Positions 18,079 to 20,931 of a stretch of 64,000 nucleotides of DNA are shown here, piece after piece. The notes under the pieces are model-generated. The model searched no databases and was not told the origin of the DNA. It saw only the letters and a program-made list of their open reading frames with translations. Source of the DNA: Elsinoe ampelina (taxonomy: Eukaryota). Position 1 is the first letter of the stretch, and the number at the start of each line of letters is the position of its first letter. Where the stretch lies: the NCBI GenBank assembly GCA_010093995.1, contig ML992504.1:1268885-1332884 (forward strand), in the 5' to 3' direction. Made by a program: the position numbers and the translations under genes.

Positions 18079-18684
18079 ATGATTCAGCTCAAGGTACGAC
18101 CAGCATGTACACACGTTCTGGACTGGCTGTGTGCGACGCTACGGCGCATACAACCTTGCAGCAGAGCGTCCCGCATGACCATGGCTAACACAACGATAGA
18201 GCTTGCTGAATGTCATTGACAACTCTGGAGCAGCGATAGCAGAATGTACGAACACATCAACAAGCTTCAGAGGTCGAGTCTGACAACCTACAGGCATCCA
18301 AGTCCTCAAAATGAAGCGGGCAGCCAAGATTGGTGACAGGATTATTGTGGTCGTCAAGAAGCAACGAAATTTCGGATCAGAGTCGGGACAAAGTGTGTCA
18401 GTCAGTGCAGCGAACAAGGTCAAGAGAGGAGATGTCAGACACGCGGTTGTGGTACGGACAGCGAAAAAGTACCAGCGCAAGGATGGAAGTGTGGTCAAGT
18501 TCGACGACAACGCCTGCGTCTTGATCAACAAGGGAGGGGAACCGATTGGGTCAAGAATGAATGGTGAGGGTGACGCCACTCGATTTAGTGATATAGCAGA
18601 CTGACACGGACAGGTATCGTTGGAAGGGAGTTGCAGGACAAGAAGTGGTCAAAGATTCTGTCTCTGGCACCAATGCACATTTGA
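18079..18684 (+). CDS. MRPL38: Mitochondrial ribosomal protein uL14m; 4 exons
   Basis: [16 protein letters not shown]...[11 protein letters not shown]...[10 protein letters not shown]...[10 protein letters not shown]. Canonical introns. Confidence 0.93.
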
Positions 18685-19005: not shown

Positions 19006-19799
19006 TCATCGTTCCTTGATTGGCGACCAGACGTGGCCACATTCGCAGCAGACATAGAAGAGTCGCTGTGAACCGCGTCAGAACGAGCCGTATGGTCCGC
19101 AAGTATTCAACTCACCATTCCAGTCTCGGCAGTACGTTGCTGACTCTGAAAGAAGACGGCATCGCGAGCTCCGCACCGTTGGTTTGGGCATTCTCGATCG
19201 ACATGAGGCAGCTGCAAACAACCGCGTCAGCACATGTTCAAGCCATGCACCAACCACTCAAAAGCCAAAACAGATATTTCCCAAAACTCAAGCGGGCATG
19301 TCATCCTCATCATCCTCATCCATGATCTCTTGGTCCGCCTCCTGCTCGTACCTACCGTCGACGACCTCGTCCTCAATAACCTCGAGGTACTGGCCGCCGT
19401 CGGTAGGGTCGCCGCAGGTGGGACACAAGATCTCTTGACCACAGAAGGTGCAGAAGCCGGGGATGATGGGATCAGGATCGGAAGTGTCACCCACCGTTGG
19501 ATCCGAAGCTACGTCCTGTGTGACGCCAGATGTTTCGCCGACGGTGTTGGAGAGCTCGTTGCGGTAGATGCACACGGGGCCTACTTCTTCCGAGAACTGG
19601 CAGTTGCGGCACTGGAATGTGAGTGTACCAAGGGTCTTGTCTTCGCGAGGGTATAGCATGTTCGCGCTGTGATCAACTCAGCGTGTGTCCTGCTCTTTGT
19701 GTGGACGAATGCCTACCATTCTTTGCAGAAGCGGAACTCGATCTTCTTCTGTTTCTGGTCGTCCGCCACGTCGTCTTTTGGTGAGTCGTAAGCAGACAT
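19006..19799 (-). CDS. RPB9: RNA polymerase II subunit Rpb9; 4 exons (intron 2 = 19494-19212)
   Basis: FRFCKEC-ANMLYPRED...CRNC (N-ribbon), QDVASDPT|LPHVDRECPNQRC...AVFFQSQQRTAETGM|RLFYVCCECGH (C-ribbon). Confidence 0.95.
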
Positions 19800-20070: not shown

Positions 20071-20931
20071 ATGGTGAGTGTGTTCCGTGTATTTGAATTG
20101 AGGATATCAAGCATAGAGTCGACAGTGGCGGCGCATGTGGAGAGGCCCTCCAGCTCTTTGCATTTCTCCCCGCACTCGTCCAGGATCCAAAATCCGGGGC
20201 ATCCATCTTCATCGACCTCATCTCTCTCCTCAGACTATTCATTAGCAATGACGTCGACAATGGTAGCGTCGCTGACACGTGGCAGGCGACAGGTCTACCT
20301 TCAGGATGGGAAGTCCGTCACTCCAACTCCAAAAATCTCCCGTACTACTTCAACGCCAACACCAAGGAGAGCAGGTGGGAGCCTCCTTCCGGAACCGACA
20401 GCGAAGCCTTGAAAATGTACATGGGCACATATCACAGCTCAGCGAATATTCGTTCCGACGGGGCGGGCGCTCATGAGGGAAAGATCAGGGCTTCACATTT
20501 GCTAGTCAAGCATCGCGACTCGAGGAGGCCTTCGAGCTGGCGCGAGGCCAAAATCACTCGCTCAAAGGATGAGGCAATGAGCATCATTCTCGGTCATGAG
20601 ACACGCATCAGGAGTGGGACAACAAGTTTGGGCGATCTTGCTACCACCGAGTCCGATTGCAGCTCATCTAGGAAGAGAGGTGATTTGTAAGTTTGCCGAC
20701 TTCGGACCCACTATTCATGCTCGGTGCTAATATATCGTCTGCAGGGGGTTCTTCGGCAAGGGAGACATGCAGAAGGAGTTTGAGGAGGCTGCTTTTGCTC
20801 TGAAGCCGGGTGAGGTCAGCCACGTCGTCGAGACAGCCTCTGGTCTGCATCTCATTGAACGGTAAATTCCTCCATCTAATTTGCTTATCTTAGACGCATG
20901 TGCTGATACCCCGATGAATAGACTCGAGTAA
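20071..20931 (+). CDS. ESS1: Parvulin peptidyl-prolyl isomerase Ess1/Pin1; 4 exons, first coding exon is ATG only
   Basis: WW domain [22 protein letters not shown]. PPIase motifs [55 protein letters not shown]. Confidence 0.95.

Follow-up and report, generated by a model that had tools for sequence, protein, structure and literature searches.

Can a single gene provide RNA polymerase II (Pol II) with two different Rpb9 subunits, depending on whether one intron is removed or kept? The question is raised by the RPB9 gene of Elsinoe ampelina, located on the minus strand of a 64,000-nucleotide (nt) stretch of contig ML992504.1 (assembly GCA_010093995.1, positions 1,268,885 to 1,332,884), called here the window and numbered from its first letter. 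Rpb9 is a core Pol II subunit studied for decades and, to our knowledge, treated as a single protein. By sequence reading and contig joints, the gene is made of four coding exons and three introns. The second intron carries, in frame with exon 2, a segment encoding four closely spaced cysteines and an acidic tail. The original prediction, drawn from the letters of the window, was that retention of this intron gives a second subunit isoform. In our view RPB9 probably does encode a conserved second isoform, real and made by keeping intron 2. The conservation of frame and cysteines, the synonymous bias of the substitutions and the existence of the spliced form all favour the prediction; one low-depth contig of one run is a weak hint of a stable retained mRNA.

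The reading frame inside intron 2

Sequence reading bears out the first description of intron 2, which is 283 nt long, begins with the donor GTGGGT and is placed between the two zinc ribbons, 7 residues upstream of the first cysteine of the TFIIS-type ribbon. The peptide obtained by reading through the donor for 68 codons is identical to the one then quoted, and includes both the CxxC-x5-CxxC motif and the acidic tail. Codon usage had been described as coding-like, and the GC content at third codon positions (GC3) is indeed 0.72 in the read-through frame vs 0.68 in exon 2; the 76 nt past the stop have a GC content of 0.46. The body of the intron was shuffled 20000 times, preserving dinucleotides. 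Frames open for at least 68 codons were obtained in 931 shuffles, and a CxxC-x3-7-CxxC motif within an open frame in 2, in line with the earlier surmise that four spaced cysteines are unlikely in a neutral intron. The open frame is by itself unremarkable, the cysteine motif is remarkable, and the comparative data decide. An in-frame insertion created by an inner donor was considered and discarded: GTAGGT (19355-19350), the sole inner donor of good quality, is in phase 1, incompatible with the phase-0 acceptor, and no contig has such a joint.

Related loci were found in metagenome DNA. The best 80 of 178 relatives were taken; 78 were parsed, and 56 are distinct after dereplication. The motif follows ..DPT-VG in frame at 41 of the 78 parsed RPB9 loci (30 of 56 distinct). 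Both cysteine pairs, as CxxC[G/Q]-x3-7-CxxC in the read-through frame, are found at 32 loci (23 distinct), and the first pair only at 9 (7 distinct). At 13 loci (6 distinct) the intron is present at the site and motif-free, and 24 loci (20 distinct) have no intron there. Canonical exon 3 is found downstream in 28 of the 30 distinct carriers, the contigs of the other two ending first, and in 27 of these 28 the frame stops ahead of the acceptor. Carrier introns range overall from 185 to 621 nt; those with both cysteine pairs have a median of 271.5 nt, and those with one pair measure 336-394 nt. Where the intron at this site is motif-free, its length is 51-193 nt (median 55). The donors most used by distinct carriers are GTTGGT (14 of 30), GTGGGT (8 of 30) and GTAGGT (4 of 30), unusual sequences forced by the Val-Gly codons. 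The original prediction was open to disproof by orthologous introns devoid of the frame or of the cysteines; both are kept in many such introns, in three fungal classes.

Some loci are peculiar. The intron of L061 (344-442 and on) has no stop in its 211 nt, the frame entering exon 3 out of its frame, and the motif, CILCGDCVCCEFC, is unusually rich in cysteines. Loci L062-L065 have at the same site an intron of 183-193 nt with donor GTTCGT, where the read-through frame stops after 6 codons and stops occur in all frames. Either the frame decayed in these loci, or a long intron arose independently.

Codon-level comparisons were made on metagenome loci (L numbers), and the Elsinoe lineage was compared as protein. 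Across 20 distinct DNA versions of a 17-codon core, codon positions 1, 2 and 3 have mean entropies of 0.82, 0.68 and 1.51 bits, respectively. Positions 1 and 2 of the four cysteine codons are unchanged, and TGT and TGC alternate (13/7, 17/3, 11/9 and 11/9); all four glycine codons are in use after the second cysteine. This glycine and the cysteines C15, C18, C24 and C27 (tail numbering) are invariant in a 150-sequence alignment, the rows of which were chosen for the motif. The 77-codon tails of a close triplet (L017, L020 and L031) differ by no insertion or deletion (indel). Differences within the triplet fall at position 3 in 15 of 17, 13 of 17 and 15 of 19 cases (p from 4e-6 to 3e-4), and the proportion of nonsynonymous differences (pN) is 0.011-0.033 vs a synonymous proportion (pS) of 0.22-0.30. 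Past the stop the introns of the triplet show 77-83% identity and indels of lengths not divisible by three, and diverge faster than the frame. The ratio of nonsynonymous to synonymous substitution rates (dN/dS) in the tail, a measurement suggested together with the prediction, is 0.08 for L022 vs L024, 0.27 for L008 vs L011 and 0.25 for L021 vs L044. Across close pairs it ranges from 0.03 to 0.27, substitutions being mostly synonymous. These patterns indicate purifying selection on the amino-acid sequence, preserving the frame, the four cysteines and a large part of the tail, in Dothideomycetes, Lecanoromycetes and a Coniocybomycete.

Two readings that deny the peptide a function can be weighed at this point. 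According to one, the frame is open by chance in a long neutral intron, and its conservation is apparent, coming from predictors that prefer long open reading frames (ORFs). The frequency of frames of at least 68 codons among the shuffles (931 of 20000) agrees with it, as does the calling of the read-through form by predictors in many genomes. The same shuffles produced the motif twice only, and the motif recurs in raw, unannotated DNA at 41 of 78 loci; substitutions are mostly at third positions, and indels preserve the reading frame within the ORF, unlike those past the stop. This makes chance very improbable. According to the other, intron 2 is a regulatory retained intron, whose weak donor would give an unproductive RPB9 transcript setting the dose of Rpb9, the peptide being a functionless by-product. 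GTRNGT is the usual donor pattern in fungi, and carrier donors depart from it at +3 or +4. Intron 2 is also far longer than its 50-nt neighbours and has a stop inside. A reported effect of Rpb9 dosage on polymerase fidelity (PMC4868539) counts for the same explanation. For such a switch, however, a stop codon would suffice. Left unexplained are the invariance of four cysteines whose codons vary freely at the third position, a dN/dS of 0.03-0.27 over the whole tail, and conserved end motifs such as ..RERALSGAG.. in the Cercospora/Septoria group. We deem it unlikely; judging from the codon pattern, neither an RNA element nor a simple dosage switch would yield what is observed. Dose control and a function of the peptide could coexist.

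Read-through proteins and the cysteine module

A first protein search with the tail gave matches in all six candidates, from Elsinoe batatas, Sphaceloma murrayae, Elsinoe australis and three others. The tail is 99% identical to that of the annotated E. batatas protein P0003, in which exons 1 and 2 are contiguous, and 62-68% identical to those of S. murrayae and E. australis. Between genera, identity is 62-68% in the tail vs 79-80% in the whole protein. The motif CTFCGQEILCP.C..PTD.G is invariant in these proteins, even in a diverged one with an in-frame insertion of 26 residues upstream. A profile of the motif region retrieved 187 proteins at E<=10 among 7498 candidates; among the matches listed (120 of 187) all have E-values of at most 2.1e-6, and all have the core. 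Motif-profile proteins with Pfam domains on record match PF02150 only. A profile of exon 2 from another locus type led to lichen fungi, and to 114 new proteins. Of these, 63 have both cysteine pairs, 33 the first pair only, 10 neither, and 8 are canonical. Carriers with a species name belong, within Dothideomycetes, to Myriangiales, Venturiales, Botryosphaeriales, Mycosphaerellales and Mytilinidiales, and are also found in three subclasses of Lecanoromycetes and in Coniocybomycetes.

The specificity of the motif profile was assessed on 1.84 billion representative proteins, where 69 matches were found at E<=1e-3. By reading the sequences, 63 of the 69 are RPB9 read-through forms or their fragments, and the remaining 6, in which CxxCG knuckles are repeated, are unrelated. 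The four-cysteine (Cys4) module thus appears, in protein sequences, to exist only at the RPB9 locus.

In many genomes what has been deposited as 'RPB9', or as a hypothetical protein of the RPB9 locus, corresponds to the read-through form and matches PF02150 only. This is so, for example, in Elsinoe, Venturia, Cercospora, Septoria, Macrophomina, Lasiodiplodia, Lophium, Lepraria neglecta, Lobaria and Xylographa. Those proteomes consequently lack the canonical protein. Tails of the Mycosphaerellales type feature a second conserved motif, ..E(R/K)RER(A/T)LSGAG.., near the stop (P0008, P0068, P0071, P0095, P0107, P0116 and many unnamed proteins), which suggests that in this group the whole frame up to the stop is functional. 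Several lichen-type lineages (loci L007-L014 and L036; proteins P0134, P0138, P0149, P0154 and P0175) retain the first cysteine pair (C.xCG) and are devoid of the second. Their tails, of 100-117 residues, have a common acidic motif, ..FDLSEMS.MEEED.., and the tail may accordingly work in the absence of a Cys4 site. P0030, a 93-aa fragment of a fungal RPB9 tail, is filed under a bacterial metagenome-assembled genome (Terriglobus roseus), probably because of fungal contamination.

Fragments of this sort bear on another explanation, that intron 2 hosts a separate small protein, expressed from an internal start or from its own transcript and not fused to Rpb9. Database fragments with a start called just before the motif (e.g., P0030, P0081, P0241) would suit it, and the tail is self-contained in fold predictions. 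Such fragments are, however, the usual output of ORF callers on short contigs. No carrier has a stop between exon 2 and the motif, which always shares the frame of exon 2, and the spacer that separates it from the donor, although measuring anything from about 4 residues to over 40, never shifts this frame. In the window no ATG is found between donor and motif. A separate protein is quite improbable, and fusion to the first part of Rpb9 is preferred.

The tail matches no Pfam family (best E 0.15), no fold of the PDB at E<=0.001 in Foldseek, and no family in the ESM Atlas (best score 0.89). Sequence-profile matches in the PDB are to single zinc knuckles (Rpo12, rubredoxin, small zinc-ribbon proteins), with a best E of 0.0028, and none spans both knuckles. 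AlphaFold, run on the tail alone with a 150-row alignment, gave predicted local distance difference test (pLDDT) values of 84-86 for residues 11-30, 69 for residues 31-40 and 51-53 for residues 41-68. For the full 153-aa protein the mean pLDDT is 65.7, and about 61-64 in the motif region, so that this model is uninformative outside ribbon 1. The interpretation that suits these results is a compact pair of rubredoxin-type knuckles, which probably bind one zinc and precede a disordered acidic tail. The expression 'swapped zinc module' used in the original prediction describes the sequence fairly; the module matches no known domain family.

Transcripts and the proposed isoform

Transcript data are Logan contigs of sequencing runs; the run types are not on record, and none is listed as RNA. 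Contigs from three studies (X1, X2 and X10) join 19065 to 19116, 19211 to 19495 and 19666 to 19717, skipping exactly the three introns. Contigs of this kind originate from spliced RNA, and canonical Rpb9 of 136 aa is therefore made. Intron 2 is a real intron, removed by splicing. The canonical C-ribbon results, as had been foreseen: the joint of 19211 to 19495 leads into exon 3, which alone matches PF01096 (29 bits vs a cut-off of 21, E 9.1e-7). PF02150, the N-terminal zinc ribbon, is matched by P0003 with 37.6 bits vs a cut-off of 25.2; exon 2 of the window alone reaches 21.4 bits, because the first CxxC sits in exon 1. The read-through product lacks PF01096, and P0003 matches PF02150 only.

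These contigs bear on the possibility that the segment is a constitutive coding insertion, the annotated 153-aa protein being the sole product. Three independent annotations in the Elsinoe family do give only the read-through protein. Contigs of three studies, however, skip exactly 19212-19494 and continue into the exons of the C-ribbon. Fully spliced, cDNA-like contigs have also been found in two other carrier lineages, L042/L043 (beside L041) and L058/L060, the latter with the same exon-2 protein as the tail-bearing P0105. Exon 3 is moreover intact downstream in 28 of the 30 distinct carriers. The probability of a constitutive insertion is practically negligible, and an intron that is both spliced and coding is the reading followed here.

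In run X10 a separate contig of 202 nt covers 19213-19414, with a depth of 2.5 vs 9.95 for the spliced contig. No X10 contig covers introns 1 or 3, or the interval 19415-19494. X1 and X2 have no contig over intron 2, and missing cover was not counted as evidence. At most, the X10 contig hints weakly at the persistence of intron 2 in part of the RNA of this run.

Other candidates for retained transcripts were examined. Record 5 of X7, from a relative 93% alike, ceases to resemble the window past position 19106, which is in intron 3; being apparently unspliced, it is silent on selective retention. Carrier loci have been considered as retained-intron transcripts, but all distinct ones in which the exon 3-4 region is visible keep intron 3, and hence are genomic DNA. 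Carriers devoid of intron 1 (L007-L012, L009 included, L033, L035 and L036) also keep intron 3, which tells that intron 1 was lost in the genome. Four proteins (P0052, P0057, P0108 and P0117) were called as ORFs from short contigs of 743-1612 nt, and have exons 1 and 2 contiguous, followed by the tail. Close kin of these proteins (P0048, P0064, P0078 and P0111) begin inside intron 1. The former may derive from transcripts in which intron 1 was removed and intron 2 kept.

Several points speak against a functional isoform made by retention. The sole contig over intron 2 is short, of low depth and from one run of unrecorded type, and bridges neither splice site; it could be pre-mRNA. A retained-intron mRNA, with its stop 280 nt ahead of the normal one, might undergo nonsense-mediated decay. 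The read-through proteins annotated in named genomes were predicted, not observed. Protein searches return open frames only, so that the share of carriers among the matches is inflated, and the lichen-type search required at least 98 aa, which favours long read-through frames. The feature is, on the comparison of loci, dispensable in some lineages, six distinct loci having a motif-free intron. The second cysteine pair was lost in 7 distinct loci and in 33 of the 114 lichen-type proteins, and metal binding by four cysteines is thus not the whole function everywhere. No Pfam family, solved structure or fold match backs a defined zinc domain.

With these points taken into account, two products of RPB9 can be envisaged. 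When intron 2 is spliced, canonical Rpb9 is made, with zinc ribbon 1, the linker and the TFIIS-type zinc ribbon 2. When it is kept, by retention or by 3' end formation before exon 3, translation would proceed past ..DPT for 68 codons. The resulting isoform of 153 aa would feature ribbon 1 and the whole linker, and in place of ribbon 2 a pair of Cys4 knuckles of about 20 residues (CxxCG-x4-CxxCG), a short PTDGG..LEV segment and the disordered acidic tail. It would be made in amounts that matter, and its four cysteines would hold zinc. The unusual donors may make the splicing of intron 2 tunable.

From structural work, Rpb9 is known to be attached to Pol II by ribbon 1 and the linker, and ribbon 2 has been linked to start-site selection, fidelity and the interplay with TFIIS, TFIIF and TFIIE. 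By way of the two attaching parts, the isoform would compete with canonical Rpb9 for its site. A polymerase so equipped would have no ribbon 2 on the jaw side, and an acidic tail close to the downstream-DNA side. Properties depending on ribbon 2, as start-site choice, fidelity and response to TFIIS, TFIIF and TFIIE, would shift. Our confidence in any particular effect on Pol II is much lower than that in the isoform itself. In yeast, the Rpb9 fragment made of zinc ribbon 1 and linker (residues 1-52) restored autophagy and ATG1 transcription, zinc ribbon 2 being dispensable, according to PMC9638876.

If the isoform is real, polymerase composition would be regulated by splicing across a large part of the fungal kingdom, and RPB9 would be a further case of old splicing that diversifies proteins, of which few are known in fungi. 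The swapped domain would be the one tied to start-site choice, fidelity and TFIIS response. A broader picture, speculative and rather doubtful, is that many filamentous ascomycetes, plant pathogens as well as lichen fungi, run two kinds of Pol II, one with canonical Rpb9 and one with the knuckle form, whose tail might reach the downstream-DNA side and act as a DNA mimic or a docking site, and that RPB9 splicing works as a feedback loop. Isoform choice would go through a weak-donor intron of RPB9 and Rpb9 affects the speed and fidelity of Pol II, so that the state of transcription and splicing could set the make-up of the polymerase.

The features of the locus are listed in the table.

Features of RPB9 and of its second intron in the window
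Feature	Position	Strand	Description
Exon 1, coding part	19799-19717	-	ATG 19799-19797; first CxxC of the N-terminal zinc ribbon; joint of 19666 to 19717 in X1, X2 and X10
Intron 1, 50 nt	19716-19667	-	Skipped in contigs of 3 runs from 3 studies
Exon 2	19666-19495	-	Remainder of zinc ribbon 1 and linker; C-terminal ..GVTQDVASDPT
Intron 2, 283 nt	19494-19212	-	Donor GTGGGT, acceptor TTTGCAG, phase 0; joint of 19211 to 19495 in X1, X2 and X10
Read-through frame, 68 codons	19494-19291	-	In frame with exon 2; VGDTSDP...DDMPA
Conserved block	19461-19378	-	PGFCTFCGQEILCPTCGDPTDGGQYLEV; based on 150-sequence alignment, codon-position pattern and AlphaFold
Cys4 core	19452-19414	-	CTFCGQEILCPTC; CxxC-x5-CxxC
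Acidic tail, probably disordered	19377-19291	-	IEDEVVDGRYEQEADQEIMDEDDEDDMPA; low pLDDT; acidic tails follow the motif also in relatives
Stop of read-through frame	19290-19288	-	TGA
Non-coding 3' part of intron 2, 76 nt	19287-19212	-	GC 0.46; branch-site-like CTGAC at 19226-19230
Exon 3	19211-19116	-	LPHVDRECPNQRC..TGM; start of the TFIIS-type C-terminal zinc ribbon (LPHVDRECPNQRCGARDAVFFQSQQRTAETGM); contig joints
Intron 3, 50 nt	19115-19066	-	Joint of 19065 to 19116 in 3 runs
Exon 4, coding part	19065-19006	-	RLFYVCCECGHVWSPIKER; stop TGA 19008-19006

Two neighbours of RPB9 have been recognized. A gene divergent from it (20097-20687, plus strand) encodes a WW-domain protein (PF00397, E 4.9e-12). 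Residues following the WW domain resemble, as judged by eye, the start of a parvulin-type prolyl isomerase (Ess1/Pin1). The target of Ess1/Pin1 is the C-terminal domain of Pol II, and if this assignment is true two Pol II-related genes have a common promoter region. An ORF with a Ribosomal_L14 domain (18311-18601, plus strand; PF00238, E 4.2e-25), probably encoding a mitochondrial ribosomal protein, is convergent with the 3' end of RPB9.

Relation to known systems

A full-text search of the literature outside subscription journals and supplements found no description of such an Rpb9 isoform, and nothing on rpb9 together with intron retention and fungi, or on conserved intron retention in Pezizomycotina. 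What is new here is an alternative isoform of a well-known subunit, with a module lacking relatives. Canonical Rpb9 (POLR2I), composed of zinc ribbon 1, linker and TFIIS-type zinc ribbon 2, is encoded by the same gene, and the first 85 residues, to ..DPT, are common to both products. The spliced form has both Pfam domains; the alternative product is without ribbon 2 (PF01096), and has instead a 13-residue Cys4 core and an acidic tail of no family.

Each CxxCG half of the module resembles one knuckle of the rubredoxin type, as found in Rpo12/RpoP, rubredoxin, LysW and eS27 (PDB matches with E from 0.0028 to 1). In zinc ribbons, however, a beta-hairpin of at least 10 residues separates the knuckles, and only 4-5 residues are found between those of the module. 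In the family of Rpa12.2, Rpc11 and TFIIS, the N-terminal ribbon serves as the anchor, and function depends on the C-terminal module. There the differing C-terminal modules reside in different genes, whereas at RPB9 one gene would offer two of them via splicing.

The yeast truncations retaining zinc ribbon 1 and linker have the same architecture as the isoform proposed here and are reported to keep part of the Rpb9 functions (PMC9638876). They are laboratory constructs of residues 1-52; the isoform of Elsinoe would be natural, cut after the full linker, and endowed with an additional conserved module. The closest precedent in kind is SKI7/HBS1, where an ancient, conserved fungal splicing choice is reported to lead to two different proteins (PMC3597508). 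Besides concerning another gene, RPB9 differs from SKI7/HBS1, as far as described there, in that a whole intron with a coding interior would be retained.

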